Assembly (NCBI GenBank): GCA_036172245.1
Contig: JAYWIR010000119.1
Span: 1 to 64,000 of the forward strand
Direction: 5' to 3'
Length of the DNA: 64,000 nucleotides
Source: Raillietiella orientalis
Taxonomy: Eukaryota
Shown piece after piece: positions 1-55,113 of the stretch (position 1 is the first letter of the stretch; every line of letters starts with the position of its first letter). Position numbers and translations under genes: made by a program. The notes under the pieces were generated by a model that was not told the DNA's origin, did no database searches, and saw nothing but the letters and a program-made list of their open reading frames with translations.

Positions 1-2665
1 TAGGCCGTTAAGGTGGAGGGAAGCTCATGCGATTAAGAAGCTCCAGGAGGAGCTCCTGGTCCATGCAGTTGAACGCTTTATGAAGATCGACTGCGATCTC
101 TAGGGCTCCCTTACCTGCCCGTTGTCTCTTCCATGACCATCGGTCTCCCTTAGATTGGGGTTTATGAGAGTTTATTTGCGTTCTTTTTTTCTTCTTTCAC
201 ATGGAACCATGTGCTGGCGAGGAACAGGTTAGCGTCCATGCTTCGCCCGGGAACAGCGTAAGTATGCTCCGGGCTAATTACGGATTCGGCTACCTGTCCG
301 AGCCGCGCAGCCCACAGTTTCGCGACCAACTTGACGCCCGTGTTGACGACCGTGATCGGACGCCAGCTGTTCAACTTACGGTGGTCTCCTCTCTTAGGAA
401 GGAGCCTCATCCTAGCTGACCGGAACGAGGCGGGAACATCGCCTTCTTCCCGGATCAGCTGTGTCAACCTAAGCACCAAGGGGGTCATCTCTGCCACGAA
501 GCTTGAAAAAATTCCGCGGGCAGGCCGTCCTCCCCTGCTGCCTTCCGCCTCTTGAGCCTTTTTATCGCGGTGATGACTTCACCGATCGTAAAAGGCTCGT
601 TTATGCTTTCCCTCTCCCCCTCCCCTATTGCCGGGGTTCCGTCCGGGAGTAGCAGTCGCGAGGTGTCCCGCTCGGGAGGCGCCCTGGCATATAGGGAGGA
701 ATAAAATTCCCTCAGGATGTGTCGAATCGCGGCCGGGGCGGAGTGTTCCCGGTCCTGGTCGTCCAGCAGGGTGGGCGCCCCGGACTGCCAGGCTTGGCGC
801 TCAGCCCCGGCTCGGTACTCGGCCAGGCGACGGACGTTGGGGGTGCTCGCGTAACGACGGGCGTATTACTGCTGAGGACATGTCGGCGTGCTCCTCGCCC
901 CGTCCTGCGAGAAGTCAGCTGGCAGCACCGCGGATTGGGAAGCCGACTCGCTCCCGTTCACCGCCGCATCGTACGCAGCTAAGTCCTGGGAGCCGACAAT
1001 CATCGCCTCGGGGTCGGAGCAGGGGCCAGGACCGCTTCCTCAGATCACGCTTTGGCTTCTGCAGCGGCCCTCTCGCGCGAAGCGACAGAGCACGCAGCCG
1101 TAGTGCAAACCTGGATTCGCACCTTCTGCGGCGTGCTTCGCTCCTGCCACCTACCTTCAAAATGAGGAATTGCGAAGGATCTACCTTCGTCTTCCCCTTT
1201 GTGGGCGTGCTGGCGACCCGAGTTCAGACCGCGTCGCTGTCCTTGGGAACGCCATGCTGGGAGGAGGACGCCTTCGTCGCCTGTTTGTCCGGAGCTACGG
1301 GCTCAGGTTTCGCTCTCGCGACGAGAGAAGGCGTTGCCCGCTTCACCTGCTCCTTCGCTGGTGCGGGCGAAACGGCGCTCATTGCCGCCATCGCGCCATG
1401 CGCTATTGCAGCCTTCACTGCCAGTGCTTTCGCCGTGGACGGAGTGCTCTCCTCGCACTTAGGGAGGCACGGCCGTTCAGAGGCAGTTCTGACGCTGTCC
1501 GCGCACGGTTTCCCGTGTTTTCCGGCCGCGGACGACCCAGCAGCCTTCGTTGAGTGCGTGTGTGCACTCTTAGGCTGCTCCGCGAGGGACGCTTTGCCCC
1601 CAGAGCGACGTGGCAATCTTCCCCGTCTGCGCGGATGTCTAGGACTGTGCCTTCCCTCAAGCAAGCACGCCCTTTTTCGCAGGGCCGTCGCTCGCTGCAG
1701 CAGCGTCATTCGCGCCCGATTTCTTCCCGGGCGCAGCGGGCGAAGTTTTCGGGTGGCCGGCGTCAGCTGGAGGCGATTCCTCGGCTGCCGTTTTCGCTTC
1801 AGCTCGGCGCACTCTTTAATGGAGTGACCGAGCAGTTTGCAATAGCGGCAGTTGCGAGAAGGGCACTTCCATGGACGGTGGCCCTCTGTGCTGCAAACGC
1901 CTCAAGCCGGTCGACGGCCGGCAAACTTAAGGTGAAAGATCGCGTCGTCCACATGTAATTGGGAAGGCATTAGCCTCCGATCCGCCATGGTCACTCGCGC
2001 CATGGCAAGTCCGCTGTGGAGACATGCTATCCTTTTAATCGGATTCTCTGCCCTCCACAGCGCGTGCACCGTGGCGAATGCACTCAGTGCACCGACGAGA
2101 ACGCGATCGGGAGTGTCCACCTGGACGGCGGACAATCGGACCACGAACGACTGGTCCATGGCCGACGGGACGACCTCCTTCCCGCGTATGTTTAGCGGGG
2201 TACCAAGAAGGCGCTGGACTAGGGCTGCCTCTTTGCAGTGCACCTCCCAGTGTCCAAGCGCGTTCACAGGCATCACAGCCAAGAGGTCTTCCTGCCTGAC
2301 ACCGACGCGTTCGAGATAGGCCCATAGATTTTCTCCGACCCCGTCGGAGACAGCAGCACAAACCGGATAGCAGAGAGCAGGCTTGTAGCCATGGGCTGCA
2401 TATGCCTGCATCCCCGCTTCGTCGGGCGGTGCTCCGTTTGCTGCCGCCGCCTTGACGATGGAGGCGAAGCGTCTCGGCGGTGGCGAGACCGAACCATCGG
2501 AGGCGGGCCGAGCATCAGGGGTAGAAACTCCAGTGTCGGCTGCAGCCTCCACACCCATCCTCTCATGCACGGGGGCCGTGGACATCCGAGTGGACGCACG
2601 CGAGCACACCACACACAAAGAAGACGGAAAGGAATCGCGCTCGAGGAGCAACGCAGGGCACGTCA
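1..2665 (-). mobile_element. Element J: L1/Tx1-like LINE with intact 5' end, disrupted ORF1, deleted endonuclease; RT runs off the window
   Basis: 5' end tgacgtg at 2665-2659. ORF1 from ATG 2585. ORF1 stop (tta 866-868) is fused to the post-EN ARRYAS segment. RT start LPKRGDHRKLNSWRPITVVN in ORF 162..497. Confidence 0.85.
866..2585 (-). pseudogene. ORF1 (gag-like, CCHC knuckle) of element J, interrupted by stops/frameshifts
   Basis: MSTAPV...GYKPALCY... is homologous to the other ORF1s. Knuckle reads (C>stop)GVCSTEGHRPWKC near 1905-1865. Confidence 0.75.
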
Positions 2666-2749
2666 GTGCAGCGTTGTCGAAGAGCGCGTTCCCGACGTTC
2701 CCGAATGCTGCGAGGAAGAACTCGCCGCTACCGTGGAGCAACGCTCAGT

Positions 2750-4377
2750 GGACATATTCATTTTTTTTTTCACATGTTTTTCTTTTCGCATTTAAAATAC
2801 ATGCTTTCTCTCGAACAGAGAAATATTGGGTAAGAATGTAAAAGTTTCGAACATATGTATTAAGATATACTTAGATCTGTATTGGATTAATATTTAATTA
2901 ATTTTTTTTGTTTTGCATCAAGAGTCTAGTGCCATTACGTTCACTGTTATTTTGTTAGGATTGGGGAACACTGGCACTGTTATAGTCAAAGAGAAAAGTG
3001 TTTAACCACGAGGAGGGAACTCAAAGTGTAGCTAGGATGGCTACGCCTTGTCCAAGTAGGGTACTGAAATCATTGGGATTTTCATCATGAAGAATTAGAG
3101 GGGTCCGTTCTTGGACAGCATGGATGTGGAAGGAAATCGAAGCTTCAGGAAGGTTTGGAGGCAGCAAGTTTTCCGGTGAATATCTCTGGAAAACTTAATA
3201 GTGGCGTAGCTAAATGGGCTGCCACATCTCTTAGGGTGTGGCTGTTCACTCCTTGGGATTTCAGTACATTGCCATTGATGGAGTCCCAGCTTCCTAGAGC
3301 ATTAATCACAATAGCGTCATTGAAGACGTTTAAGGAATTTTGTAGTGCCGAGCTGAATGCAACGGGACGATTCTCGAAGGGAACGATGATATCTATGATG
3401 ATCGCTGTAGTGGATGCAAGAAGATGTCGGGACGCAGGAAAGAGTCTACTGACTCGATTCTCTTGACCCGAGACGAAATTGGCCACGAAGGGGATAGTAA
3501 CGAAAACATCCAATCCGCTACGTAGTCGTGCCCTTTGGTAATCGAGGAGCTGAAATGGCGGGGACAATGGCACAATACATGCGCAAGTGTTTCTTTTTCA
3601 TATCCGCAGAAACGGCACGTTACGATGAGTCGACGTCCCACGACCGTGGGACGTCGACGACTTCCGTTCAGCACTAACTGGTTTAATCGTGCTCTGTGGA
3701 TAAATCGTTAATGAGAAAATCTTATACCACCAGACAGCGATAGGAAGGACATGGACGCGGGATGAAGGCTAGCGCATTCCATCATTCTTCCCTGATCAGG
3801 CTTCGCAAAGAGAGATTTGCATCTTTCGTCTCTTAGAAATAGCGAATGTTTCTTGCCATTTGCCTCCTATGTGAAGCCGAAAGAATTTTGGGGATTTCAG
3901 CAGTAGTAGAGTGGACGGAAATGGTGATGCAGTTCTCCTCAGAACCTGATTCGATAGGTAGATGTTTGGATGCTTCCCTGACCGGGGACCAAAATGTGCG
4001 TGGGTCACCACTCATGCAATTCAGGGGTTCCAGACAACACCCATCGAGAAAGCGGGTAATGAGGGTAATGTCAGGAGGGGCATGGTTGGCTATCGCTTCG
4101 CACCGTCCGACAACGTCATCTTTGCTAGGTCGGCAAGTCTGCTATCTGGGCAAGTAAGCAGTTGGAAGGAGGAATCTCCTGTCATCGAGCGCGCTTTCTC
4201 GATAAGGCGCATCACTCCAAGGCAGCAATCCCTTGTTTCTCCATAGAGATATTCGTACCATGACCCTTTTGAGAGGGGGAGGATAGACCGCTTCACGACA
4301 TACTTGATGATTTTGTCGAGCGCAGCACATGAGCTCCAAGGTTTTGTGGACAGACGAAAGTCATGAACAAGGCTCAT
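2750..4377 (-). mobile_element. Degenerate 3' fragment of a restriction-like-endonuclease non-LTR retrotransposon (NeSL/Utopia-like)
   Basis: Minus-strand RFIHRARLN, CRFCGYEKETLAHVLCHC, LRPDI, IIDIIVPFENR, ALGSWD. A-run (T10 on plus) at 2761-2770. AT-rich 3' UTR. Confidence 0.8.
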
Positions 4378-5026
4378 CAACAAGGAGGGAAGCGAACCGA
4401 CGTCGTCGTCCGTCATCGAGGCCGCGCTCGATGACGTCGCCTTCGAACGAGCGGCGGAAGTGCTGGCTTCCTCGCTGAAGCCGTCAACTTCCAAGGCCGG
4501 CAAGAAGGCCGTGAAACGTCCGACCTCTACTCAGGAGTCGGTAACTTCCGACCCCGAGGCTGAGGCCGGAAACGCAGCTTCCATCTCCGCGGCGCCCCGC
4601 AGGAAGGCTGGACGAAAGTCCAGCATACCCCTGCGGAAGACCGTTTCCCCCGCCGAAGAAGAAGAGATGGCTTCCGCAAGCGAGGGTGCCATGAGCGTGG
4701 GAGAATCTTGGAACTCGTTGCCCGAGAGACTCCCACGCTCGGAAACGGAGGGGGTGGAGGAAGAACATGTGTCTGAGGTGCCTGAGGAGGCCGAAACCCC
4801 CATGGCCATCTCACCCGCCTCGGAAAAGGCGGGTCCGCCACACCGACATCTTCCCAGCAGTAATGCCGAGAATATCCTGCCGCCGCCGTCTGCGCATCGC
4901 CCTTGGGAACGTCAACGGCATGACAGACGCCGGCAGCAGACGAGACCTGGCCGCCCTCCTAGGATCCTTCGACCTTGCGCTGCTGCAGGACATCCACGTG
5001 ATCTCTGCAGAACAAGAGCAGGAGAT

Positions 5027-5087
5027 TAGTCACCCGGTCACGCCGCCCGTGTATTTTACACAAGATTTTAGAACAATTACAGAAAAT
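5027..5087 (-). mobile_element. 61-bp 5'-truncated LINE 3' terminus with ~12-bp degenerate TSD (duplicated at 15028-15088)
   Basis: Minus strand ends aaatacacgggcggcgtgaccgggtgacta, like the family 3' end. Flanks are agagcaggagat (5015-5026) and agcgcgggagat (5088-5099). Confidence 0.75.
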
Positions 5088-5400
5088 AGCGCGGGAGATG
5101 GAGCGGATCTCCGCAGGACGGCCGCGGTATCGGTGTGGACAACCGCAGAGTTGCGGTCTTGCCTACCTGCTTCGGCCAGTCGTCGAGGACGCGGAGCGGG
5201 GCGTGCGGTTCGACGATCAAGGTCGTGTCGGCCAGCTGCTTCTCAGATGGTCCGACTCCATCGACCTGATTGTCAACGACCTGTATGCCCCGAGGGGCAC
5301 GGACCTGACGGACAGCTGCAAAGCGGCGCGACTGGCTGACCGAGGAAGGCGTGCGGAACTCTCATCCGGTTGCAGGAGAAGTCAACGTGCGTTTTCGTGT

Positions 5401-23970: not shown

Positions 23971-24641
23971 GCTGGCTGGTGTGGCTTTCATGCTCAAGCC
24001 AGCCGTCGTTAATGCGCTGCGCGACGTGCACTTCAACGGGGAAGGTCAAATCGGGCAGCTTGTTGCCAAGTGGTCCGACGCGATCGACCTCGTCGTGACC
24101 AACGTGTGCGCGCCCGGCACGAGCCACAGGCGCGGGGAACGCACTGCGTTCTTCGAAGGCCTGCGGCGAGATTGGCTGGCCGAAGCAGACATGCGAAAGG
24201 CGCACCTCATTGCCGGGGACTTTAACGTCCGCCTGCTGGCAGGTGCGCCCGACATTCGCGCACAGCTGGTCAACGAGATGTGCGCTGCCATGCACGCGCG
24301 CAACTTGTTGGCCGGTGACGCCGGGACGGAGACGAGGATCGACCACATGTTCCTCGACAACCACCTGTGTTCGCGGGTGGGAAATCGAGGGGCAGTGCCA
24401 TCCGAACTTTCCGACCATCCCCGGCTCGTGCTAGAAATACACCCGCGAGGTAGAGGTCCACCCTCCACAGCGTGGCGTTTGCCAGGGGACTGGTTGCGCC
24501 TCGCAGGAGCAGCGCAACATCTTCGCTTGTTCCTCCAAGGCTTCCATCTGCAGTCGCTGGCGGACTGGGACGACTTGAAGAGCTCAGGCCGCGAGTTCTG
24601 CGACCAGTTTCCCCTGAACCGTCTCCCTCCAGGTTTCGGCG
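23971..24641 (+). mobile_element. Element A, endonuclease fragment (5' part lost)
   Basis: ORF 23981..24673: TNVCAP, IAGDFN, RIDHMF, SDHPRL, ending LPPGFG at the insertion site. Confidence 0.88.
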
Positions 24642-27586: not shown

Positions 27587-27596
27587 CTTGGCGAGT

Positions 27597-27603
27597 GGAC
27601 GTG
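27597..27603 (+). promoter_or_regulatory. GGACGTG, DPE-like internal promoter motif
   Basis: Present at all intact 5' ends: 20070, 27597, 44725 on plus; 35962, 39756, 55103 on minus; variant TGACGTG at 2665 and 12665 on minus. Confidence 0.55.
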
Positions 27604-27682
27604 TTTTTCCTTCGCTCCCGAGTGAGTCGACAGGAAGCGGTTTTTTGTTGTGTTGTTTAGTGCGGAACATCGTTGGTGTCCG

Positions 27683-29439
27683 ATGGCAGCGATGCCTGAG
27701 GACACCACGATGGAGGTAGGTGTGGGGGAGGCTTGCCCACCCCCACAGCCTACAGAATCAGTGGCGTCCGCCCCGGAATCGCCCTCGCCGCTCAAGGCGA
27801 GGAGCTGGAGCGCCATGGTGGCCGCGCCGAGCGCGGAAACCATGGCCGAGATGGCGGCCTACCGGGCAGCTGGGTACAAGCCCAGCTTGGTTTACCAGGT
27901 AGGCAATCTCTTTGACGGGCGAACTGCACGCGCTTTTTCGAAAGCGCTGCAGAACGCCAACGTATTAGAAAAGGACCTTGACGGTCTATCCGTGCTAAGC
28001 GGGGGTCAGCGCGTTGAGGTTGTCTGCAAGGACATCACCTTGGCGCAAAGCTTGATAACCACCCCGCTGAACGTGGACGGACGCAAGATCCTACCAGTCA
28101 CGATGGACCGCTCCGTAGTGGTCCATCTGACAGGGATCACCATCCGCATGACGCGGTCTGCGGTTGGTGATCAGTTAAGAAAGCACGGGGATGTTCACGC
28201 GCTTTGGCCAAAGGCCACAATCTTCGATGGCTACGATAGCCTTTTCGGAGGGCAGGCCGCCGCGCGCGTGACGGTGAACGAGAGTGGGCTTCCCCACAAA
28301 CTAGAGGTCAATGGCGAAGTCGTAGACCTCTGGTGCGTGGGGAAACCCCGCTTTTGTGGCTACTGCAATGCAGTAGGACACTTGCGCAAGCGGTGCCCGA
28401 ACATTGTGTGCCACTTATGCGGGGAGAAGGGCCACGTACGCCGCGTATGCCCTAAACTCCCCACTCCGGTGCCGCCTGCTGCAAAAAAAGCACAGGCAAA
28501 ACGCGGTAAACTGGTCGAAAGACCAAAAAGAGATACTGGCCGGCAGCAGCCGCTAGCCCCTGTTCCTCCCACACAGGCGTCGGAAGAAAAACCCTCCGAA
28601 GACGCGGGAGTCCAAGACGGCTGGCAGCTGGTCAAGGCCAGGAAGGAGAAAACGGTGCCCCCCGCGGAACCCGCAAAAGCGGTAAAAAAGACAGCCGGCA
28701 AGGCGAAAAAACCTGGGCCGCGCTCTAAGACCATGCAGGAGTGTACGGTAGCACTGGAGCGCATAGCCGTTCCCGAGATTGCCACCCGGGGCGACGAGCC
28801 TTCCCTCGCCGTTTCCGCCGCGCCCGAGGTTCGCGACGGCGAACCCTCTGTTTACACAGAGGGTGAGCCGCGCGACGCGCCGGTCGACACTGCGGACGCC
28901 GCGTTCGCAAAGGCGGCGGAGGAGCTCGCAGCCACGCTGGCGGAGCGTGAGAACCCCTCACGCAAGGCCGTGCGAAGGCCGGCTCCCGCGAAAAAGGCCC
29001 CCACAGGTGAGTCGGACCTGGGGGCCGGAAGTGCATCCTCCTCCTCGGAGGCACCCCCAGGAAGTCGGGACGCAAGTCCCAGAAACCCAGGAGGCGCCTC
29101 CCCTCCACCAGCGAGGAGGAGAAGCAGGAAGGTAGCGGTAGCGTGGGAATCCTGGAGGGGGAACTCCCACGCTCGGAAGCCGTCGAGCCGGCCACCCCCA
29201 TGGAGGAGGGTGAGCAGGGGGGCGAAGTCCTCCCTGCAGTCGCCGAGCCTGAACAGCCCGCCCCCATGGAGGAGGGCCAACAGGTAGGCGCGACCCCACT
29301 TAAGGGTGATCCGGACGACGCGCCGGCACCGATGGATGAGGAGGAAAAGGTGCCTTCAGTACCTGTCCCCCCTCCCCCTCCACCTAACGTCCCGCCCCAG
29401 CAGGTGGCGGACGCCGCATCGCCGTTTTCCCTGGACTAA
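27683..29439 (+). pseudogene. ORF1 of C (two CCHC knuckles), one frameshift near 29060
   Basis: CGYCNAVGHLRKRC and CHLCGEKGHVRRVC. The C-run before agg is one base shorter than in the intact B ORF1. Confidence 0.88.
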
Positions 29440-32400
29440 CACTTGGGCTCGCCAGTCGCCGTCGGATTCGCGCGGCCTGTTGGAACGTCAACGGGCTGCG
29501 CGACGACGGCAACAGGCGAGATACAGCCGACGCCCTGCGTGAGCTCGACCTGGCGCTGCTGCAGGAGATCCACGTGATCACCGCGGCAGACGCCCAGGAA
29601 ATCGAGACGATCGCGGGGGGTCGGCTGTATTGGCGATGCGGCCTCCGCAACACGTGCGGGGTCGCGTTCTTCGTGAAGCCGGCCATCGACGCTGCCGTAA
29701 AGCGCGTGCGGATTGATGACGACGGTCGGATCGGTCAGCTGATTCTCAGCTGGTCCGACTCGATCGACCTAATCGTCACAAACGTGTATGGCCCCAGCGG
29801 TAAACAGGGATACAGCGACCGTACCAGGCTGCTGGATTCCCTGAAGCGCGACTGGCTGGCGGACACGAACGTGCGGAAGGCTCACCTGATAGCGGGAGAT
29901 TTCAATCTCCGTCTGCTAACAGGTGAGCCAGAAACACAAGAGAACGCGATGAACGAGTTGTGCGCCGCCATGCGTGCGCGCAACTTGTTCGCGGGTGAGA
30001 GGGGACTGGTCCGCAGCATCGACCACGTCTTCCTCGACGCTGACCTGTGTTCACGGGTCGGCAAACGGGGGAGGGTTGCGTCGACGTTGTCGGACCATTC
30101 CCGGTTAATTTTCGAGATGCGGCCTCGTGACTAGGGACCGCCATCCAGGGATTGGCGTCTGCCGGGGGACTGGACGCGACTCTCAGGTGCGAAGGAATAC
30201 CTTCGCGAATACCTGAGAGGTGTCACGCTCCGGAATCTCCAGGACTGGGACCTTTTTAAGGAATCGGTCCGCGAGTTCTGTGAGCAGTTCCCCTGGATCG
30301 CCTGCCCCCCGGATTCGGCGAGGGTGCTCGCAACCATCGGGCCTATTTACAGGCTCGTAGGTACGAGAGAACCCCTAATGTCCGTCGCCTGGCCGAGTAC
30401 CGCGCCGGGGCCGAACGCCAAGCCTGGCAATCCGGGTCGGCCAGCTTGCTGGACGACCAGGGCCGGGAATGCTCGTCCCCGGCGTCGGTACGGCATCTCG
30501 TGCGGAGTTTCTATTCCTCCCTTTACGCCAGGCAGCCCCCGGATCGAAACGCCTCTCGGCGCTTGCTTCCGGATGGCGCCCCGGCAATAGGGGAGGAGGA
30601 GATGGAAAGCCTCGACGAGCCTTTTACCACCGGCGAAATTCTCGCCGGTATCAAAACGCTCAAGAGGCGTAAAGCTCCAGGGGAAGACGGCTTGCCCGCG
30701 GAGTTCTTTCAGAGCTTCGCGGAAGAGCTGGCACCCCTGCTGCTTAAGTTGATCAGGCTGATCCGAGACGAAGGCGATGTTCCCGCCTCGTTTCGGTCAG
30801 CCAGAGTGAGGCTCCTGCCGAAAGGGGGGACCTCAGGGATTTAAAGAACTGGCGTCCGATCACGATCGTGAATACGGACGCCAAGTTGATCGCAGGGCTA
30901 TGGGCTTCGCGTCTGGGGCAGGTGGCAGAATCCGTAATTAGCCCGGAGCAGACTTATGCTGTTCCCGGGCGAAGTATGGATGCCAGCCTCTTCTTCGCAA
31001 GCACATGGGTGCACCTGCAGAGAAGAGAGAAGAAAGGGATAGGGAAAGTCGGCAACCCCACATTAAGGCCGCCAGCCGGGCTGGGAAGGGACCCCCGGGC
31101 GGGGAAGGGGGCCCTAGCGCTCGCAGTCGATCTCCACAAGGCGTTCGACTGTGTAGACCAGGAACTTCTCTTGGAGCTCCTGGGTCGCATGGGCTTTCCA
31201 CCCTCCCTGATTTCCTACCTGCGCTCTTGCTGGCGGAACGCGATAATTACCGTCTCTTTCAGCGGTCAAAAGGTGTATGGCGTGCCGGTGCGGCGGGGCA
31301 TAAGGCAGGGAGATAGCCTCAGCCCCCTGCTCTTCAGCACCTACTTTGAGTTGGTGCTGAGAGCGTACAGGGTGACTTTGGCCCCATTGCCGAGCTCGTG
31401 CCCCGGCACGCCCGCCGTAGCAGCATACGCCGACGATCTTCTGCTTTTGTTGCCAATGTCCACCCCGGCAAAGGCGGTCGGAGACTTCTTCGATCTGCTC
31501 AGCCGCGGGACCGGACTGCACGTTAACAGAGCGAAGTCGTCGGTTGTGCCAATAGGTGCGGCGTGGGCAGGGCAGCAGGACTGGGTCCGTCTGGGGATCC
31601 CCACGGCGAGGTGCTTCAAGTACCTTGGTGTGCCGTTGGGGGACTACTCCCCTGCGGAAGCGTGGTCCAGCTGCCTCCATAAAGTCGAGACGGCGATCGG
31701 CCCGTTCCTGGAAGGCAAGTTTCACTTGCCGGAACGGGCCGCGGTTTGGAACGCCTTCGCGGCACCCATCCTCCGCTTCTTGCTTTTTGTTTGCCCCCCC
31801 ACCGTGGAATCCAAGAAGAGGACGAAGGACCTCCTCCGTATCGCCCTTTGGGGCAAGGGGAGGCCCCGAGTCCCACTGAAGGACTTGTGCGCTCCGCGTC
31901 GGGACGGCGGTCTTGGCCTCCTGACGCTGGAGCGCGTGGAAAAGCAGCTGCCGTGGCGAACCCTCGCCATCGCAGCGAAGATGTGGAGCACCCCTTGGTG
32001 CACTCCGGCCCGCCTCCTGGCCAGCCGTGTGTCCCGGTGCGATGGACTCGCGTCTTTTCTTCTGAGCCGTGGCCGGAAGATGCGAAGATGCGGCCTACTG
32101 CTCGGGCGCATGGCAACATTGGCCAAGGAGAACAGCTGGATGGTTTGCTGCCCCGCCAGCTCCCCCGCCTGGCTGGAGGAGAATATTGGAACGTGGGCAG
32201 TAGTCAACCAGAGAAGCCACGAGACGTGGAATCGTCTCCGATGCAGCCCCTACGCCCGCTGCACGCTGCGGAATCTCCTGGAGAGTTCAGCAAGATGCAC
32301 GTGGGCAGAGACGACCTGCCTAGCTACGGCGCTACCCTTCCTAAGGAGGGCACTTCACAGCACCCGGACGCCAAGGTGGCAAGTCTCCTGCTGCATCGAG

Positions 32401-33033
32401 GGACGCGAGAAGTTGATCAGCGGCTGGACAACAGGAGAACTGGCCGACGCCTCGACCCCGAGCGTCCAGCCGCGAGGATTATTAAGATGGGGCGAGCTGC
32501 TCGCCATCCCCCGGGATGAGCTGAAGTGGCCCCCGGTGATGAAGGAATCCAGGATCCTGCCCCTCAAGTGGCAAGAGTCGGCGTTGCTTTTGTTGCACTG
32601 GGGTCTACCCTGCAACGCGCGCCGCTTCCACTGGACGAGGGGGGCTGTGGATCCTGCGTGTGCCAGGTGCGGGGAGCGGGAGTCGCTTCCCCACCTTATT
32701 GTGGATTGTGCTGCCCTCCGACCCCTTTGGGAACGGTTCGGGACGACCCTCGGGCTCCCTACGGGTAGCACCCCCAGAGACGTTCTTCGGCCCCTCTTCG
32801 TGAAGGACGCACTGCAGCCAGCCGCAGCCATCGCAGCCTTGTGCTGCGTCCGTGGCATCGTGGGGGCATGGAGCGACGCCAACAACGAAGGAGTGGGTCC
32901 ACAGGCGAGGGATGTCATCCCGTATGCCAAACGCTTCTTGCGAAGAGCTGCCGGATGGCCCCAACTAGGGAATATGCAGGCTGACCTCGAGGGCTTCGTT
33001 CGACGGATGGGCCCTCCCCACAGCGACCAGTGA
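29439..33033 (+). pseudogene. ORF2 of C (APE-RT-Cys), with a stop at 30132 and frameshifts near 30290 and 30830
   Basis: WNVNG, LQEIH, GDFN, IDHVF, SDH; RT in ORF 30868..33033 with DLHKAFD, GIRQGDSLSP and YADD. Confidence 0.9.
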
Positions 33034-33209
33034 TCCCTTCCCTGCCCTCCAACTTCTTTTTGTTTGTTTCTTTTTTTATTTTACTTTTTGTCTCATCCCC
33101 ATCCCCCTTCGCTGTCGGGGAATGCCACGCCGGGCTGCGTCCCGGTGTCCCGACAGGTCCTGTGTTTACGGCCGTGGTGGGGCCTTGTACCACGCATGTA
33201 AAGTTTATC

Positions 33210-33240
33210 AATAAACGCCCCGGGCGTACCCGGGTGGCAA
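33210..33240 (+). terminator. Conserved LINE 3' terminus: AATAAA plus CCCGG/CCGGG hairpin plus TGGCAA, no poly(A)
   Basis: Same layout at the ends of A, B, E, F, I, M and the 61-bp insertion. Confidence 0.75.
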
Positions 33241-35972
33241 CGCCGAATCCGGGGGGCAGGCGATCCAGGGGGAACTGCTCACAGAACTCGCGGACCGATT
33301 CCTTAAAAAGGTCCCAGTCCTGGAGATTCCGGAGCGTGACACCTCTCAGGTATTCGCGAAGGTATTCCTTCGCACCTGAGAGTCGCGTCCAGTCCCCCGG
33401 CAGACGCCAATCCCTGGATGGCGGTCCCTTGTCACGAGGCCGCATCTCGAAAATTAACCGGGAATGGTCCGACAACGTCGACGCAACCCTCCCCCGTTTG
33501 CCGACCCGTGAACACAGCTCAGCGTCGAGGAAGACGTGGTCGATGCTGCGGACCATTCCCCTCTCACCCGCGAACAAGTTGCGCGCACGCATGGCGGCGC
33601 ACAACTCGTTCATCGCGTTCTCTTGTGTTTCTGGCTCACCTGTTAGCAGACGGAGATTGAAATCTCCCGCTATCAGGTGAGCCTTCCGCACGTTCGTGTC
33701 CGCCAGCCAGTCGCGCTTCAGGGAATCAGCAGCCTGGTACGGTCGCTGTATCCCTGTTTACCGCTGGGGGCGTACACATTCGTGACGATCAATTCGATCG
33801 AGTCGGACCAGCTGAGAATCAGCTGACCGACCCGACCGTCGTCATCGAAGCGCACGCCCTTCACGGCCGCGTCGATGGCCGGCTTCACGAAGAACGCGAC
33901 CCCGCAGGTGTTGCGGAGGCCGCACCGCCAATACAGCCGACCCCTCGCGATCGTCTCGATCTCCTGGGCGTCTGCCGCGGTGATCACGTGGATCTCCTGC
34001 AGCAGGGCCAGGTCGAGCTCACGCAGGGTGTCGGCCGTATCTCGCCTGTTACCGTCGTCGCGCAGCCCGTTGACGTTCCAACAGGCGGCGCGAATCCGAC
34101 GGCGACTGGCGAGCCCAGGTGTTATTTCTGGGAAGATGGCGATGCGGCGTCCGCCACCTGTTGGGGCGGGACGCTAGGTGGAGGAGGAGGGTCAGGCGCT
34201 GCGTGCACCTGGTCCCCCTCCTCCATGGGTAACGGCGCGTCGAGGGGGTCACCCTTAAGTGGGGTGGCGCCTACCTGTTGGCCCTCCTCCATGGGGGCGG
34301 GCTGTTCAGGCTCGGCGACTGCAGGGAGGACTTCGCCCCCCTGCTCACCCTCCTCCATGGGGGTGGCCGGCTCGACGGCTTCCGCGCGTGGGAGTTCCCC
34401 CTCCGGGATTCCCACGCTACCGCTCCCTTCCTGCTTCTCCTCCTCGCTGGTGGAGGGGAGGCGCCTCCTGGGTTTCTGGGACTTGCGTCCCGACTTCCTG
34501 GGGGGTGCCTCCGAGGAGGAGGATGTACTTCCGGCCCCCAGGTCCGACTCACCTGTGGGGGCCTTTTTCGCGGGAGCCGGCCTTCGCACTGCCTTGCGTG
34601 AGGGGTTCTCACGCTCCGCCAGCGTGGCCGCGAGCTCCTCCGCCGCCTTTGCGAACGCGGCGTCCGCAGTGTCGACCGGCGCGTCGCGCGGCTCACCCTC
34701 TGTGTAAACAGAGGGTTCGCCGTCGCGAACCTCGGGCGCGGCGGAAACGGCGAGGGAATTCTCGTCGCCCCGGGTGGCAATCTCGGGAACGGCTATGCGC
34801 TCCAGTGCTACCGTACATTCCCGCATGGTCTTAGAGCGCGGCCCAGGTATTTTCGCCTTGCCGGCTGTCTTTTTTACCGCTTTCGCGGGTTCCGCGGGGT
34901 GCACCTTTTTCTCCTTCCTGGCCTTGACCAGCTGCCAGCCGTCTTGGACTCCCGCGTCTTCGGAGGGTTTTTCTTTCGACGCCTGTGTGGGAGGAACAGG
35001 GGCTAGCGGCTGCTGCCGGCCAGTATCTCTTTTTGGTCTTTCGACCAGTTTACTGCGTTTTGCCTGTGCTTTTTTTGCAGCAGGCGGCACCGGAGTGGGG
35101 CGTTTAGGGCATACGCGGCGTACGTGGCCCTTCTCCCCGCATAAGTGGCACACAATGTTCGGGCACCGCTTGCGCAAGTGTCCTACTGCATTGCAGTAAC
35201 CACAAAAGCGGGGTTTCCCCACGTACCAGAGGTCTACGACTTCGCCATTGACCTCTAGTTTGTGGGGAAGCCCACTCTCGTTCACCGTCACGCACGCGGC
35301 GGCCTGCCCTCCGAAAAGGCTATCGTAGCCATCGAAGATTGTGGCCTTTGGCCAAAGCGCGTGAACATCCCCGTGCTTTCTTAACTGATCACCAACCGCA
35401 GACCGCGTCATGCGGCTGGTGATCCCTGTCAGATGGACCACTACGGAGCGGTCCATCGTGACTGGTAGGATCTTGCGTCCGTCCACGTTCAGCGGGGTGG
35501 TTATGAAGCTTTGCGCTAAGGTGATGTCCTTGCAGACAACCTCAACGCGCTGACCCCCGCTTAGCACGGATAGACCGTCAAGGTCCTTTTCTAACACGTT
35601 GGCGTTCTGCAGCGCTTTCGAAAAAGCGCGTGCAGTTCGCCCGTCAAAGAGATTGCCTACCTGGTAAACCAAGCTGGGCTTGTACCCAGCTGCCCGGTAG
35701 GCCGCCATCTCGGCCATGGTTTCCGCGCTCGGCGCGGATACCATGGCGCTCCAGCTCCTCGCCTTGAGCGGCGAGGGCGATTCCGGGGCGGACGCCCCTG
35801 ATTCTGTAGGCTGTGGGGGTGGGCAAGCCTCCCCCACACCTACCTCCATCGTGGTGTCCTCAGGCATCGCTGCCATCGGACACCAACGATGTTCCACACT
35901 AAACAACAATAGAAAAAACCGCTTCCTGTCGACTCACTCGGGAGCGAAGGAAACACACGTCCACTCGCCAAG
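33241..35972 (-). mobile_element. Element B, 5' half (5' UTR, ORF1, EN up to LPPGFG)
   Basis: 5' end cttggcgagtggacgtg at 35972. Candidate TSD ggattcggcg (35973-35982) and ggtttcggcg (24632-24641). Confidence 0.92.
34122..35876 (-). CDS. Intact ORF1 of B, 584 aa, nucleic-acid-binding protein with two CCHC knuckles and an acidic/Pro-rich tail
   Basis: MAAMPEDTT...CGYCNAVGHLRKRC...CHLCGEKGHVRRVC...SSQK* is open throughout. Confidence 0.9.
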   Translation of the reverse strand: MAAMPEDTTMEVGVGEACPPPQPTESGASAPESPSPLKARSWSAMVSAPSAETMAEMAAYRAAGYKPSLVYQVGNLFDGRTARAFSKALQNANVLEKDLDGLSVLSGGQRVEVVCKDITLAQSFITTPLNVDGRKILPVTMDRSVVVHLTGITSRMTRSAVGDQLRKHGDVHALWPKATIFDGYDSLFGGQAAACVTVNESGLPHKLEVNGEVVDLWYVGKPRFCGYCNAVGHLRKRCPNIVCHLCGEKGHVRRVCPKRPTPVPPAAKKAQAKRSKLVERPKRDTGRQQPLAPVPPTQASKEKPSEDAGVQDGWQLVKARKEKKVHPAEPAKAVKKTAGKAKIPGPRSKTMRECTVALERIAVPEIATRGDENSLAVSAAPEVRDGEPSVYTEGEPRDAPVDTADAAFAKAAEELAATLAERENPSRKAVRRPAPAKKAPTGESDLGAGSTSSSSEAPPRKSGRKSQKPRRRLPSTSEEEKQEGSGSVGIPEGELPRAEAVEPATPMEEGEQGGEVLPAVAEPEQPAPMEEGQQVGATPLKGDPLDAPLPMEEGDQVHAAPDPPPPPSVPPQQVADAASPSSQK

Positions 35973-38956
35973 GGATTCGGCGGAGGGCTGAGGAACGACC
36001 GGGCATACCACCACGCCCGTCTTTACTCTAGAACTCCCGACGTTCGACGCCTGGCGGAGTATAAAGCTGGGGCTGAGCGACAGACCTGGTAATCCGGGTC
36101 GCCCAGCTTGCTGGACGCCCAAGGCCAAGAATGCTCAGCTCCGGCGAGAATAAACCGCATCCTGCGGGACTATTACTCCTCCTTGTACGCGCGTAGAACA
36201 ACAGAGAACGCCGTGGCGCAGCGCTTGCTGCCGCAAGGCGCCCCCGCGCTGCAGGAGGAGCAGGCACATGAACTCGCGGAGCCTTTCTCGATGGCGGAGA
36301 TCGTCTCCGCCATCGGAAAGCTCCGTAAGAGAAAAGCACCAGGGGAAGACGGTCTGCCCGCGGAGTTCTACCAAGGCTTCGTGGCGGAGCTGGCCCCCCT
36401 GGTGCATCGGCTATGCATGCTGATCCGAGAACAAGGGGACGTCCCCAAATCGTTCCGGTCAGCTAGAGTACGTCTCCTGCCGAAAGGAGGAGACAATCGC
36501 AACGTAGGCAACTGGTGTCCCATCACAGTAGTGAATGCGGATGCGAAGCTGCTTGCCAAGCTTTGGGCTGAGCGACTGGGACGGGTGGCGGAATCCGTGG
36601 TGAGTACGGAGCAGACATACGCTGTTCCCGGACGAAGCATGGAGGCCAACCTGTTCCTCGCCAGTACATGGTGGCAGTTGCAAAAAAGCGAAGACCAGGG
36701 AGGTCAAGAGAATCCTGGATTCTCCTCTGACCAGGGAGGGTACGCCCTTTATGGAAGAGCTGCGCCCGGTGCCCTTGCGGTCGCAGTCGATCTGCGTAAA
36801 GCGTTCGATTGCGTCGACCAGGAACTGCTTCTGGAGCTCCTGGAACGCTTGGGATTCCCGGCCGTCTTCCGGGCTTACCTGCGCTCCTGCTGGCGCTTCG
36901 CTCTAATAAACATCTCTTTTAGCGGCCGGCACGTGTACGGCGTGCCGGTTCGGCGTGGCATAAGGCAGGGTGACAGTCTGAGCCCCATGCTCTTCAGCAT
37001 CTACTTCGAGCTGGTGCTGAGGGCATACAGGGAGATTCTGGCAACCCTGCCAAGCTCGTGTCCCGGCACGCCTGCCGTGTCGGCCTACGCCGACGACCTT
37101 CTGCTCCTGCTCCCCGGGTCCACCCCGGCGTCGGCGCTCGAAGATTTCTTTGAGTTGCTGCGCCGCGGGACGGGCCTCGAGGTGAACAGAGAGAAATCTT
37201 CCATCGTTCCAACATCACCACAACTTTTCAACAATACGGCGTGGGCCGGACGGCCGGACTGGATCCGCTTGGGGATCCCCACGGGCAGGTGCTTCAAGTA
37301 CCTTGGCGTTCCGTTGGGGGACTTCTGCGTTGCAGAAGCCTGGTCCGACCGTCTCCAAAAGGTGGAGTTGGCGATCGGCCCGTTCCGGAACGGCAAGTTT
37401 TACTTGCAGGAGCGGGCCGCGGTGTGGAACGCTTTCGCGGCCCCCCTCCTTCGCCCCTTACTTTTTGTTTGCCCCGCCCCTCCCATCATACAGAGACGGA
37501 CCAAAGCCCTCTGGAGGACTGCCCTTTGGGGCACAGAGAGGTCGCGAGTCCGATTGAAAGACTTGTGCGCTCCACGCAGGGATGGTGGCTTGGGCCTCCT
37601 TACGTTGGAGCGCATCCAACTTCAAACAAGAATTCGAAAGTTAGCCCTTGCGGCTAGCTTATGGATGACGCCATTGTGCGATTCGGCACGGCTCCTCGCC
37701 AGAAGAGCGACCGGCTGCGAAGGATTGTCCTCGATCCTCGTGGCCTACCAGCGCAGCCTCTCCAACTGTGGTCCCGATTTGCTCCAGATGGTCGCCCTGA
37801 TGAGGGAGAATACCTGGATCTCCTGCATCCCCGCGAACTGCACTGCCTGGCTTCAGGAGTCAGCTTCCGCGTGGGCTAAGATCAAGGGCACGAGCGAGGC
37901 GGAATACAACTGCCTACGACGAGGACCGTACGCTCGACAGCCGCTGCAGGATATTATCAACACGCCCCGGAAGTTTCTGTGGGCTTCTTTCAGTCCCCTT
38001 GCCCCAGTTCTGTCCTCCCTTAAAAACACTAGGAGCAGCAACGAGCGGGCATCGTGGGAAGTTTCCTGCCTTATCCGAGGCAGGAAAAAACCTTTAAAGG
38101 CGTGGACGACTTGGGAGCTCACGGACGCTGCCACCCCGAGCGTCCCGCCTCACGGACTTGCGCGCTGGGGAGAGCTGCTCGCAATACCTCCGGAGGAGGT
38201 GAAGTGGCCCCCAGCGTGTTGGGATTGCGGTACACTCCCGTTGAAGTGGCAGGAGACGGCGTTGCTATTTCTGCACTGGGGACTGTTAAGCAGAGCACGC
38301 CTGTCTCACTGGACACTGGGGAATGTGGATGCCCGCAATGTCGAGTGCGGAGAAAGAGAAACCTTCCCGCATCTCACCCTCGAATGTGTCGCCCTGGATG
38401 GACTCTGAAGTCAAATCGCCCCAATCCTCCATCATCCAGTAGGCGACCCTAAGGAAGTTTACCGTCGCCTCTTTCTGCGTGACGGCCTGCGCCCCGCTGC
38501 GTCTCTAGCAGTCCTCTGCTGCGTGCGCGGCATTGTGCAAAGGTGGCACGCCAGAAAAAGAGGCCCAAGATGCAGGGACGCCATCCACTGGACGACGATC
38601 TCTTTAGAGACGGCGACAAGGTGGCGTCTACCTTTCACAATAAAAACTGAACTTGACTGCATCCTCAACAGGATGCGGAGGACCGACCCAGGCGCCCAGT
38701 GATCCCTTCCCTTTCCCCCCCCTCTCCCCATACAACTGTTTCCCTCCCCGTTATCTCTCTTTATGTTTGTTTTTGTTTTAGTTTTCCCTTCCCATGCGCC
38801 TCGGGAATGGACCTAACCGGTCTATGCACCGGCAACCGACACGTCAACCAAGGTGGGAAAACCAAGTGTTTCCCACAATTAACTTTTGAAAGACTTTATT
38901 ATATAATTTTTGTAGAAAATAAGAATAATAAATGCACCGGCATATCCGGGTGGCAA
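35973..38956 (+). mobile_element. Element A, 3' half (linker, RT, 3' UTR, terminus)
   Basis: Starts GFGGGLRNDRAY. Terminus aataaatgcaccggcatatccgggtggcaa (38927-38956). Confidence 0.9.
36108..38408 (+). CDS. RT-containing open stretch of ORF2 of A (766 codons; frameshift before the true end ~38702)
   Basis: KAPGEDGLPAEF, DLRKAFD, GIRQGDSLSP, YADDLLL, KYLGVPL. Confidence 0.88.
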   Translation: MLDAQGQECSAPARINRILRDYYSSLYARRTTENAVAQRLLPQGAPALQEEQAHELAEPFSMAEIVSAIGKLRKRKAPGEDGLPAEFYQGFVAELAPLVHRLCMLIREQGDVPKSFRSARVRLLPKGGDNRNVGNWCPITVVNADAKLLAKLWAERLGRVAESVVSTEQTYAVPGRSMEANLFLASTWWQLQKSEDQGGQENPGFSSDQGGYALYGRAAPGALAVAVDLRKAFDCVDQELLLELLERLGFPAVFRAYLRSCWRFALINISFSGRHVYGVPVRRGIRQGDSLSPMLFSIYFELVLRAYREILATLPSSCPGTPAVSAYADDLLLLLPGSTPASALEDFFELLRRGTGLEVNREKSSIVPTSPQLFNNTAWAGRPDWIRLGIPTGRCFKYLGVPLGDFCVAEAWSDRLQKVELAIGPFRNGKFYLQERAAVWNAFAAPLLRPLLFVCPAPPIIQRRTKALWRTALWGTERSRVRLKDLCAPRRDGGLGLLTLERIQLQTRIRKLALAASLWMTPLCDSARLLARRATGCEGLSSILVAYQRSLSNCGPDLLQMVALMRENTWISCIPANCTAWLQESASAWAKIKGTSEAEYNCLRRGPYARQPLQDIINTPRKFLWASFSPLAPVLSSLKNTRSSNERASWEVSCLIRGRKKPLKAWTTWELTDAATPSVPPHGLARWGELLAIPPEEVKWPPACWDCGTLPLKWQETALLFLHWGLLSRARLSHWTLGNVDARNVECGERETFPHLTLECVALDGL

Positions 38957-39756
38957 ACGTCCACGGACGGTGGCCCTCGGCACCGTAAATGCCGCAAGCC
39001 GGTCGCTAACCGGCAAACTTAAGGTGAAAGATCGCGCCGTCCACATGTAATTGGGAAGGCATTAGCCTCCGATCCGCCATGGTCACTCGCGCCATGGCAA
39101 CTCCGCTGTGGAGAGATGCAATCCTTTTCATCGGATTGTCTGCTCTCCACAGCGCGTGCACCGTGGCGAATGCACTTCGTGCAGCGACGAGCACGCGATC
39201 GGGCGTGTCCACCTGGACGGCGGATAATCGGACCACGAACGACTGGTCCATGGCCGACGGGACGACCTCTTTCCCGCGGATATTTAGCGGGGTGCGAAGA
39301 AGGCGCTGGACTAAGAATGCCTCTTTGCAGTGCACCTCCCAGTGTCCGAGCGCGTTCACAGGCATCACAGCCAAGAGGTCTTCCTGCCTGACACCGACGC
39401 GTTCGAGATAGGCCCATAGATTTTCTACGACCCCGTCGAAGACAGCAGCACAAACCGGATAGCAGAGAGCAGGCTTGTAGCCATGGGCTGCATATGCCTG
39501 CCGCTCTTCTTCGTCGGGCGGTGCACCGTTGGCTGCCGCCGCCTTGACGACAGCGGCGAAGCTTCTCGCCGGTGGCGAGACACAAGAATCAGAGGCAGAC
39601 CGGACATCTGGAATAGAGTCTCCACTGTCAGTAGCAGCCTCCACATCCATCTTTTGCTGCAAGGGCTCCGTGGACATCCCAGTGGACGCACTTGGGCACA
39701 CCACACACAAGAAGACGGAAAGGAATCACGCTCGAGGAGCAACACAGAACACGTCC
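38957..39756 (-). mobile_element. Element K: J-family 5' end and ORF1 N-terminal part, interrupted by A at the zinc knuckle
   Basis: 5' ggacgtgttctgtgttgctcctcg; ATG 39677 MSTEP; ORF 39006..39710 is homologous to 1902..2741. Confidence 0.88.
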
Positions 39757-41794
39757 GTGCACCGTTGTCGTCGAGCGTATTCCCGACTGCTGCGAAAAAG
39801 AACTCCCCGCTACTGACGACAACCCCTCTGTTGCCTCTGTCAACAGCGAGGGGAGCGAGACGGCGGCGGCGTCGGTTATCGACACCACCATCGATGACGT
39901 AGTCTTCGCGCGAGCCGCGGAGGAGCTGGCAGCCTGGTTGCAGCCAGAACCCTCCAAGGCTGGCAAGAAGGCCGTAAGGCGTCCGGCCATCCCTCAGGAG
40001 TTTTCCACTTCCGACCCCGAGGTGGAGGCCGGAAGCGCAGCCTCCGTTTCCACGGAACCGCGCAAGAAGGCTGGACGTAAGTCCACAAAGCCAAGGAAGC
40101 TCGTGTTTCCCGTCGTAGGGGAAGACATGGCTTCCGCAAGCGAGGGTGCCATCAGCGTGGGAAACACTCAGGACCCGTCGCAGGAAAGACTCCCACGCAC
40201 GGACACGGAGGGGATTGAGGGGGTGAAGGCCAAAGCGGTGGCTCAGGTGCCTGAGAAGTCCGAGACGCCCCTAGGAAATCCCGCCCGCCTCGCAAGAGGC
40301 GGGCTCCCCCACAGTTTAATCTTCCCAGCAGTAATGCCGGGAATCTCCTCCCGCCGTCGACTGCGCATTACCGTTTGGAACGTGAACGGCATGACAGACG
40401 TCAACACAAGACGAGACATGGCCGCACTTCCGGAGTCCTACGACCTTGCGCTGCTGCAGGAGATCCACGTGATCTCTGGAGAACAAGCGCAAGAGTTCGA
40501 ACGGATCTCTGGAGGGCGGCTATAATACAGGTGTGGGAGAGCGAAAAGTTGCGGTGTCGCCTACCTGCTTCGGCCAGCCGTGGAGGCCGCGGCTCGGGGC
40601 GTGCGGTTCGACGATCACGGTCGTGTCGGCCAGCTGACTCTCGGGTGGTCCGACTCGATCGATCTGATCGTCACGAACGCGTACGCACCGAGCGGCGCAG
40701 ATCTGATGACCAGGAGGGCGAGGAAAGAGCTTTTCCTTGTTCTCCAGCGAGACTGGCTGACCGAAGCAGGCGTGCGGAATGCCCATCTGGTTGCAGGCGA
40801 TTTCAACGTTCGCCTGAAACCAGATGGGCAAAATCCAGAGCGTTACCTGGTCAACGAGGTGTGCATGGAGCTGCACACCTGTAATTTGTTGACCAGTGCA
40901 CCGGGGATGGAAGACTGCATTGACCACGTGTTTCTTGACGAGCACCTGTGCCCTCGCGTGGGCAGGCGCGGGAAGTTAACGTGCGAGCTGTCCGACCATC
41001 GCCTGCTAGTCCTCGAGATCCATCCGCGCGACAGGGGCCTCCCCTAGTCAGTGTGGCGTCTCCCAGGGGACTGGCTAAAGCTCCCGGACGCGGCGGAACA
41101 TCTCCACACGTTCATACGGAGCTTCAGGGTGCGGACACTCCAGGATTGGGACCGCTTCAAGCGGTCAGTCCACGAGTTCTGCGACCAGTTCCCTCTGCAC
41201 CGCCTACCTACGGCTTTTCGGACCGGGGTCCGGAACGAACGAGCCTACCTGCAGGCTCGTAGTTACGTTAGGACCCCCGACATCCGCAGGCTAACGGAAT
41301 ACAAAGCGGGAGCCGAGAGGCAAGCCTGGCAGTCCGGATCGGCCAGCTTACTGGAAGATCAGGGCCAGGAGCACTCGGTACCTGCTCAAATCCGCGGCAT
41401 GCTGCGGAGTTACTACTCCTCCCTGTATGCCAGGGCACCTCCGGAGAAGAACGTCTCACGACTCCTGCTTTCGGAAGGCGCTCCAGCGATCGGGAGAAGC
41501 AGAGAAAGACCTTCGACGAGCCTTTCACGATGGACGAGATCCTCTCGGCCATCGGAAAGCTCAAGAGGCGAAAGGCGCAAGGGGAGGACGGCCTGCCCGC
41601 GGAGTTTTATCAAACTTTCGCGGCTGAGCTTACCCCCCTGGTACAGCAACTCACCTTGCTGATACGCCAAACAGGTGACGTTTCCGCCTCGTTTCGTTCG
41701 GCAAAGGTGCGGCTCCTCCCTAAGGGAGGAGATCTGAGGAGCATGAACAACTGGCGTCCCATCACAATAGTGAATGCGGACGCCTAGTTGCTGG
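39757..41794 (+). mobile_element. Element H, 3' continuation (ORF1 tail, EN, start of RT), interrupted by E
   Basis: Resumes at CTVVVERIPD. WNVNG, LQEIH, GDFN, IDHVF, SDH; ends WRPITIVNADA*LL. Confidence 0.85.
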
Positions 41795-54800: not shown

Positions 54801-55113
54801 CCTCTACATAGGCCGACAATTCCGCCGCGGCTGCAGGCGATGGCGCCGACACAATGGCGCTCCACGCCCGCGCTGCAGCGGGGACCGATTCTGTGGGGGC
54901 GGATTCCCCCATTTCCATCGCCTCTGGGGGTGACGTTGCCGCCGCTTCCTGGCTCTCTATCGCGTCTGGGAGCTGCGTTTCCGCTGCCCCCTGTCCATCC
55001 CTGGTGATCGCGTCAGGCATCGCTGCCTGATCGACCACCGAACCACAGGACGCTTGCACTGGGGGAGACTTTTTGGCACGAGGAGCACCGAGAAAACACG
55101 TCCGCCCTCGAGC
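51884..55113 (-). mobile_element. Element L: H-family 5' end, ORF1 (ATG 55020), EN and start of RT, interrupted by M
   Basis: ORFs 53938..55059 (CGFCNTSGHLKKRC), 52629..53741 (EN), 51891..52628. Confidence 0.9.

Follow-up and report, generated by a model that had tools for sequence, protein, structure and literature searches.

The R1 and R2 long interspersed nuclear elements (LINEs) of ribosomal DNA (rDNA) enter one exact target nucleotide, leave precise junctions with a short duplication or deletion, and do not depend on poly(A). They target a host gene array; R2 carries a restriction-like endonuclease, while R1 belongs to another clade with an apurinic/apyrimidinic-type endonuclease (APE). 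The locus described here is a 64-kb window, meaning the whole stretch from position 1 to 64,000 of contig JAYWIR010000119.1 of Raillietiella orientalis (assembly GCA_036172245.1). It resembles the R1 and R2 systems in its exact target nucleotide, precise 5′ and 3′ junctions and short duplications, and is unlike them in that the targets are sibling elements: ∼57 kb of the window consist of related retrotransposons without long terminal repeats (non-LTR), nested in one another, with an overall G+C content of ∼60%. Our main subject is one recurrent landing site, site 3, in the first open reading frame (ORF1) of an element family represented by H and L, which is entered by a second family represented by J and K.

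LINEs of the Tx1 clade are described as targeting other transposons: Tx1 inserts into the piggyBac element Tx1D, and crocodilian families, in the accounts cited, insert into Mariner-N4_AMi or into specific LTR retrotransposons (PMC4494074, PMC6719617). As in this clade, which also includes Keno, Kibi and Koshi, the elements in the window combine a second open reading frame (ORF2) encoding APE and reverse transcriptase (RT), an ORF1 with CCHC knuckles, and exact insertion into repeated DNA. Unlike in the Tx1 clade, the targets are coding motifs of sibling LINEs, not DNA transposons, RNA genes or microsatellites, and several families target each other, always in antisense orientation. The L1-type LINEs Zepp and ZeppL of green algae (Chlorella, Coccomyxa, Chlamydomonas) enter existing copies and build LINE-only nested clusters, which are described as tandem arrays dominated by 3′ ends owing to 5′ truncation (PMC8226300). 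In arrangement, the present elements share with Zepp the nesting into existing copies. Unlike Zepp, the elements here include many full-length inserts, come from several families, lie antisense at defined internal coding sites with duplications of 9–16 bp, lack poly(A) and carry AATAAA. The difference from the known cases lies in mutual targeting among sibling LINE families at coding motifs, antisense, with many full-length copies; literature keyword searches, which cannot show a pattern to be unpublished, returned no description of it.

The best overall explanation of the window, with a probability of about 0.6, is a recursive nest of L1/Tx1-like LINEs in which site 3 is a sequence-specific target and in which K and a downstream segment, I, are likely to be parts of one insertion. 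All conclusions on insertions are drawn from the 64-kb window alone.

The elements are APE-type non-LTR retrotransposons, as defined by APE and RT domains, a fixed 3′ end, the lack of LTRs and short duplications. A Pfam scan of 17 long ORFs found RVT_1 (PF00078) in five (I, A2, A1, N and I2; E=1e-18 to 5e-23), and Exo_endo_phos (PF03372) in the L ORF at 52629–53843 (E=5.3e-12, 46.4 bits against a cut-off of 24.5). The CCHC knuckle (PF00098) is recognized in ORF1 of both A1 and A2 at 23.6 bits (cut-off 20.8), and CX2CX4HX4C motifs are legible in J. The mapped elements share a common 5′ end, (T)GGACGTGTTTT, and a common 3′ end consisting of AATAAACG, a short hairpin and TGGCAA(C). All six matches to the 5′ motif GGACGTG... 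coincide with mapped 5′ ends, marking A1, A2, A4, H and L; seven of eight matches to the 3′ motif AATAAACG-hairpin-TGGCAA coincide with mapped 3′ ends. Covariation in the hairpin is near absent (one of seven pairs), and by sequence it is a conserved motif whose structure is unproven. N, A5 and I2 are 5′-truncated.

The segments that define site 3 are as follows.

990..2665, minus strand: J, with 5′ end, 5′ untranslated region (UTR), a full-length-sized ORF1 and two CCHC knuckles; the boundary at 990 is approximate
∼10990–12665, minus strand: J′, tandem copy of J
2666..2745, plus strand: G, the H-family host of J, ORF1 just 3′ of site 3 (CSVVEERVPD...), 79% identical to the H-right flank and 77.5% to L
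4377..5391, plus strand: G continued, end of ORF1 and APE (tblastn to residues 1–328 of the L APE), 78.0% identical to H-right and 80.2% to L
20060..21255, plus strand: H-left, beginning with the 5′ end GGACGTGTTTT and reaching through ORF1 to site 3, 87.8% (1048/1194) identical to L 55112–53915
21240..21255: left copy of the site-3 duplication, atgcagcgttgtcgtt
21256..23963, minus strand: I, with 3′ end (AATAAACG, hairpin, ...ccggttaatg), RT and C-terminal domain, beginning in the APE-RT linker
38957..39756, minus strand: K, with 5′ end GGACGTGTTCTG..., 5′ UTR and the N-terminal part of ORF1; N cuts its first CCHC knuckle
39757..39772: right copy of the site-3 duplication, gtgcaccgttgtcgtc
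39757..41794, plus strand: H-right, ORF1 from site 3, APE and the RT N-terminus, 93.1% (1893/2033) identical to L
51888..55112, minus strand: L, an H-family element with site 3 uninterrupted (53913–53930) and its 5′ end in the KAFD motif of P

J and K, both on the minus strand, represent 5′ ends from a single LINE family and abut H-family ORF1 at one nucleotide, at the codons E|C(S/T)VVV. The J junction reads cacgtca|gtgcagcgttgtcg, with the break after 2665 and the same string at 12665; the K junction reads cacgtcc|gtgcaccgttgtcg, with the break after 39756, and the family 5′ terminus begins exactly there. The initial annotation had placed J/K insertions at this motif of the H/L ORF1, with 5′ junctions in one register at 2665, 12665 and 39756. 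The strings are present at all three coordinates, but the junction at 12665 belongs to a tandem copy (J and J′ are 99.7% identical) and is not a separate event, leaving two of two independent 5′ junctions at the motif, in hosts that are 78% identical. Its reading of L as an empty site also holds: L (53935–53910, minus strand) runs through ...aaagag tgcagcgtcgttgtcgaacgcgtt, encoding KECSVVVERV, and the seeming stop just upstream of the site is a frameshift, the KECSVVVERV frame being open over the region shown. Allowing up to two mismatches, the motif TGCASCGTTGTCGT occurs five times in the window (2667, 12667, 21241, 39758 and, on the minus strand, 53916), always in homologous places, where shuffling gives an expectation of 0.70 and none of 100 shuffles reaches five. 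On the A-family ORF1, residues 21–378 correspond to 20191–21258 and residues 373–477 to 39758–40060, which locates site 3 within ORF1.

On the other side of the proposed insertion, the 3′ end of I, with its family-type AATAAACG-hairpin tail, directly abuts H-left at 21256. The duplication atgcagcgttgtcgtt/gtgcaccgttgtcgtc flanking K and I is identical at 13 of 16 positions as delimited, its ends being uncertain by 1–3 nt. The degenerate duplication of ∼14–16 bp that had been proposed is present; in length it may be 13–14 nt with one or two mismatches.

The J and K inserts are 89.5% identical in nucleotides (716/800) and 86% in amino acids, whereas identity between the hosts G and H-right is 78.0% (732/939; Fisher p=8e-11 against the inserts). 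Even the first 71 aligned flank bases of G and H-right are only 78.9% identical (Fisher p=0.011). Had a composite been copied as a unit, divergence would be equal on either side of the junction. Further insertions set the hosts apart too, G having an AT-rich insert of 1.63 kb and lacking A3. Because the inserts are more alike than the hosts and the other host insertions differ, the sequences indicate that J entered G and K entered H in independent events that share both nucleotide and orientation, a coincidence with a random chance of ∼9e-5 for two insertions into a 5.6-kb element. On this sequence evidence, insertion at site 3 is genuinely sequence-specific and has occurred repeatedly.

Alternatively, a single ancestral composite of H-type host and J/K insert could have been duplicated segmentally, with gene conversion making the inserts look younger than they are, so that site 3 would not be preferred at all. 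Segmental events are frequent in the window, which holds a 10-kb tandem duplication and inverted arms that are 93–96% identical and share a nonsense codon, and conversion between nearby repeats is suggested by A1 and A2, whose 5′ halves are 95% and 3′ halves 81% identical. We nevertheless consider this account improbable, since identity shifts at the element boundary (from 89.5% inside to 79% over the 71 flank bases nearest the junction, and 78% farther out), the hosts of J and K carry different other insertions, and exact reuse is seen at sites that duplication cannot explain, namely A1 in A2 in N, and H and L in hosts that are 65% identical. Still less probable is an assembly artefact, for which the near-identical 10-kb repeats and two joins outside the logic of the nest (23963/4 and 50643/4) might be cited; the site-3 junctions join non-homologous sequences and show proper element termini and a duplication, features that mis-joining at repeats does not create.

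A sequence-specific site 3 could be used as follows. An endonuclease serving J/K-type elements would nick the antisense strand of H-family ORF1 at E-C-S/T-V-V-V. The RNA, cut ∼24 nt past AATAAA at the terminal hairpin, would be reverse-transcribed from this nick in a target-primed manner, and a second-strand cut 13–16 bp away at site 3 (or 9–10 nt away at site 1, described below) would yield the short duplication, with the full-length 5′ end joined at one exact nucleotide. The cleavage and priming steps follow the established behaviour of APE-type site-specific LINEs. Site 3 was entered at least twice independently (J into G, K into H), L being the unoccupied H-family copy. In the proposed order of events, the K/I element would later have been split by the antisense element N (23964–38956, carrying A2, which carries A1), with the loss of ∼1.1–2.1 kb of K/I.

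The initial annotation held that K and I are one element interrupted by later insertions, and we consider it somewhat better than an even chance that they are the 5′ and 3′ ends of a single insertion into H. The alignment proposed for this purpose, of the H halves to L, bears out the collinearity of the host: the two halves, H-left and H-right, map in collinear order to L and also to the A-family ORF1 (residues 21–378 and 373–477), with a short overlap. A value of 80% for H-left against L, obtained with blastn, was discarded, since it is diluted by flanking host RT at 65.4%, and H-left proper is 87.8% identical. The orientations of K, I and H are those expected for one antisense insertion. The families to which the two halves belong are also compatible. 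The J/K ORF1 is ∼30% identical in amino acids to both the A and the H/L families, which are 45% identical to each other, and the RT of I falls outside the A+Q and H/L groups; since the J/K ORF1 is equidistant and the I RT is an outgroup to the same families, an I-type RT would be a congruent partner for a J/K-type ORF1. On these grounds, unity is only plausible.

A number of observations weigh against this reading of K and I and of site 3. Only two independent J/K junctions lie in the window, and no J/K 3′ junction is visible, the downstream end of J being off the window or lost. The gap between the break in K (in ORF1, at the first CCHC knuckle) and that in I (in the ORF2 linker) amounts to ∼1138 bp on J and ∼2.1 kb on A1, and the two junctions of N share no target-site duplication. 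J, the one further member of the family, is followed colinearly by the N-terminal part of an RT, whose identity is 64.3% to I and 75–78% to the A family. The closest relative of I is I2, whose 3′ end lies in the APE of A4 and not at site 3. Three mismatches in the 16 positions of the duplication have a probability of ∼0.004–0.04 if the copies decayed by 2–5% in total, which would be acceptable if the duplication is really 13–14 nt with one or two mismatches. Finally, identity to L is lower for H-left (87.8%) than for H-right (93.1%; p=5e-7); this could reflect two different H hosts, or homogenisation of inverted-repeat arms.

In a less likely alternative, K and I are the ends of two elements, brought together by tandem entry into site 3 of one H copy or by recombination between occupied H copies, with the stretch between them lost when N inserted or in a later deletion. 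In its favor, the RT of J is unlike that of I (64.3%, against 75–78% to A) although J and K are 89.5% alike, and the junctions of N, having no duplication, indicate that a deletion took place. A second junction without duplication, 50643/50644, shows that big losses occur in the nest, and the mismatched duplication (3/16) and the unequal similarity of the H halves to L would also fit. Two elements, however, require either two families with one target or a larger loss (∼6–8 kb instead of 1–2 kb). Nor is site 3 used by I2, which is related to I. J itself is abnormal, lacking APE and combining an ORF1 and an RT that are incongruent, and may be the chimeric party.

The last point bears on the unity of K and I as well. 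The RT of another, intact J/K copy had been proposed as a check, a mismatch with I being taken to refute unity. The RT of J is indeed unlike that of I, but J is not intact and possibly chimeric. Its ORF1 passes straight into the APE-RT linker, with an in-frame TAA before YARRY (10880–11230 and 880–1230), and no APE domain was detected in 12700–10400. J could therefore be an internal deletion, a chimera or a member of an endonuclease-less lineage; its lack of APE together with the phylogenetically incongruent pairing of ORF1 and RT is what points to a chimera. By the ORF1 and RT phylogenies, an I- or N-type RT is a possible natural partner of the J/K ORF1.

J and K each carry a private nonsense codon around the first CCHC knuckle (in frame at 1902–1904 in J; 39006–39008 in K). 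In I, two TAG codons lie within the initial 45 nt (23919–23963), after which a frame of 820 codons is open. At both head-to-head joins, 23963/23964 and 50643/50644, a minus-strand I-type element meets a plus-strand 5′-truncated element with no duplication, which implies a kilobase-scale loss of host at insertion or later.

The remaining LINE segments of the window are listed below; A-coordinates are positions on the full-length element A1.

1..990, minus strand: Q_up, A-like RT N-terminal region and linker, continuous with J and leaving the window at its start; blastn aligns 15–862 with A1 31202–30353 at 77%
18402..20056, minus strand: Q″, 3′ portion of a Q-type RT, host of H, broken at the antisense of the RT motif KAFDCVD
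23964..24642, plus strand: 5′ piece of N, truncated in APE and reaching site 1 (residues 232–404 of the L APE; A-coordinates 29721–30321)
24643..27586, minus strand: 3′ piece of A2, from RT to the 3′ end with its motif (A-coordinates 30311–33320), 81% identical to A1
27587..33241, plus strand: A1, full-length A-family element (ORF1 of 553 amino acids, APE, RT), the innermost, in site 1 of A2
33242..35973, minus strand: 5′ piece of A2, 5′ end, ORF1 and APE to site 1, 95.2% identical to A1 27433–30320, with the 5′ motif at 35962
35974..38956, plus strand: 3′ piece of N, RT (E=5.8e-22; A-coordinates 30311–31935), 3′ end ...ccgggtggcaa inside K ORF1
41795..44714, minus strand: A3, A-type RT to 3′ end, in site 2 of H and cut at site 1 by A4
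44715–46754, plus strand: 5′ end of A4, in site 1 of A3
46755..50643, minus strand: I2, I-like, with the C-terminal part of APE, RT and 3′ end, in the A4 APE motif QEIETIAGGRL
50644..51884, plus strand: A5, 5′-truncated and A3-like (95.6%), 3′ end at site 2 of L
55115–∼57000, plus strand: P, host of L

The nest is five insertions deep (Q″>H>K/I>N>A2>A1). I has an open frame of 820 amino acids at 21456–23918 (RVT_1 E=3.3e-18), its 3′ motif at 21284–21269 and 76.7% identity to I2. The counterpart of Q_up in the second tandem copy, 10916→10461, is 65% identical in amino acids to the A1 linker and RT.

Site 3 is one of several fixed positions. Site 1, in the linker LPPGFGEGAR, holds the 5′ ends of A1, A2 and A4 in the hosts A2, N and A3 (three events). 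A1 in A2 and A2 in N occupy the same 10 nt (A-coordinates 30311–30320), and for both the duplication is (C)GCCGAATCC, 9–10 bp, with one mismatch in the A2 pair. The 5′ ends of H (20056/20060) and L (55112/55115) lie at the KAFD site, antisense to the RT motif (R/H)KAFDCVD, in Q″ and P; these hosts are 65.4% identical and the inserts 87.8% (p=8e-27). At site 2, NWRPITIVNADAKL|, the 3′ ends of A3 and A5 lie in H and L (two events), H-right being cut by A3 at NWRPITIVNADA*LL|. N in the CCHC knuckle of K and I2 in the APE of A4 are single cases. Inserts are antisense to their hosts in all 11 firmly mapped pairs; in one tentative case, that of an ORF1 fragment (R) lying in G at ∼5385, the orientation would be sense. 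A choice of target by base pairing of the element 3′ end was rejected, since A1/A2, A3/A5 and N share ...CCGGGTGGCAA yet use three sites.

Within the window, the earlier proposal that sibling families partition their targets is supported by the A-type linker site (three uses), the H/L-type KAFD site (two uses) and the others. A bolder extension, which we put forward tentatively, is that one genome houses six or more sibling LINE lineages as a closed guild, every one of them cutting a conserved coding motif of others, always antisense, so that they live almost wholly inside each other as LINE-only islands. The motifs would be ECSVVVER and the CCHC knuckle in ORF1, QEIET in APE, LPPGFGEGAR in the linker, and NWRPITIVNADAKL and KAFDCVD in RT. 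J/K elements, in such a guild, might consist of ORF1 and RT without an endonuclease, or might swap modules, borrowing the site-3 nuclease in trans.

The present gain is modest: one target site has been read correctly, and the link between K and I is only plausible. If the pattern is genome-wide, transposons would here be seen, in a compact example from nature, to split a ‘safe’ niche, each other's bodies, into exact sites. A further benefit would be a set of closely related APE endonucleases that differ in their long recognition sites; comparing these could reveal the residues that determine target choice in L1/Tx1-type enzymes. The question of target choice bears on LINE-only islands, such as algal centromeric clusters, and on tools for site-specific RNA-templated insertion.

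By database matches and domains, the elements appear to be L1/Tx1-like. In the PDB, the APE is best matched by the L1 endonuclease and its Tx1/R1 loop chimeras (E=6e-8), and the RT by L1 ORF2p (E=5e-16). A protein search with the N RT gave a single close match, P0001 (63%), on a 2.9-kb metagenome contig; the rest are at most 31% identical and L1/Tx1-like, and the best named matches carry zf-RVT. This domain (PF13966) scores E=0.006–0.008 and 17 bits at the ORF2 C-terminus in the window, under its cut-off of 27.5 bits. Among feature-based Atlas clusters, the top one bears the automatic name ‘Transposon TX1 149 kDa protein family’ (score 0.97). A metagenome scan with the J/K ORF1 alignment gave 392 pattern matches and no relatives; with the RT alignment, the best 80 of 167 relatives are all 23–32% identical and outside the present group of LINEs. 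A programmed in-frame stop at the APE/RT border was considered and rejected: A2, N and I2 have none, and the stops of A1, H and L lie at differing codons.

Two inverted-repeat arms, 39780–43034 (H-right and A3) and 53898–50644 (L and A5), are 93–96% identical. In both, the same codon is a nonsense TAG, 8 nt ahead of the A3/A5 junction. Their ends match the K insertion and the A5 truncation, which fits homogenisation between the arms. To judge by these sequences, the A3 and A5 events may be non-independent. Likewise, the contrast in A1 and A2 between 5′ halves (95%) and RT halves (81%) suggests conversion between inverted arms.

The nest stops at 56976–64000, where a decayed 3′ region of P, in which the conserved 3′ terminal motif is absent, meets DNA of 40–46% G+C without a long ORF or Pfam match. 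Ten further ORFs gave no Pfam family (eight from 3145–3597, 5856–7654 and 57657–62774, and two from the C-terminal region of J ORF1, 10909–11223 and 11227–11901). The AT-rich insert of 1.63 kb within the ORF1 tail of G (2746–4376, and 12747–14377 in the tandem copy) has no LINE similarity, no terminal repeats in a repeat search and no Pfam match. No convincing 3′ end of Q′, the Q-type element of the first tandem copy, was found in 5300–8500.

The positions 251–10241 and 10242–20055 form a tandem duplication that is 99–100% identical, each copy with J, its G host and a Q-type RT. Positions 1–250 and 9989–10241 are just 77.6% identical, which places the tandem breakpoint inside the Q-type RT. 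The second copy stops exactly at the 5′ junction of H; Q′ equals Q″ until that point, and the remainder of Q″ is absent from the window. The region 5385–8414 (and 15386–18401), unassigned from 5392 on, has a possible LINE 5′ end at its start and, with no other domain recognisable, contains an ORF1 fragment (5557–6059, plus strand, oriented as G) with 39–54% amino acid identity to J/K.

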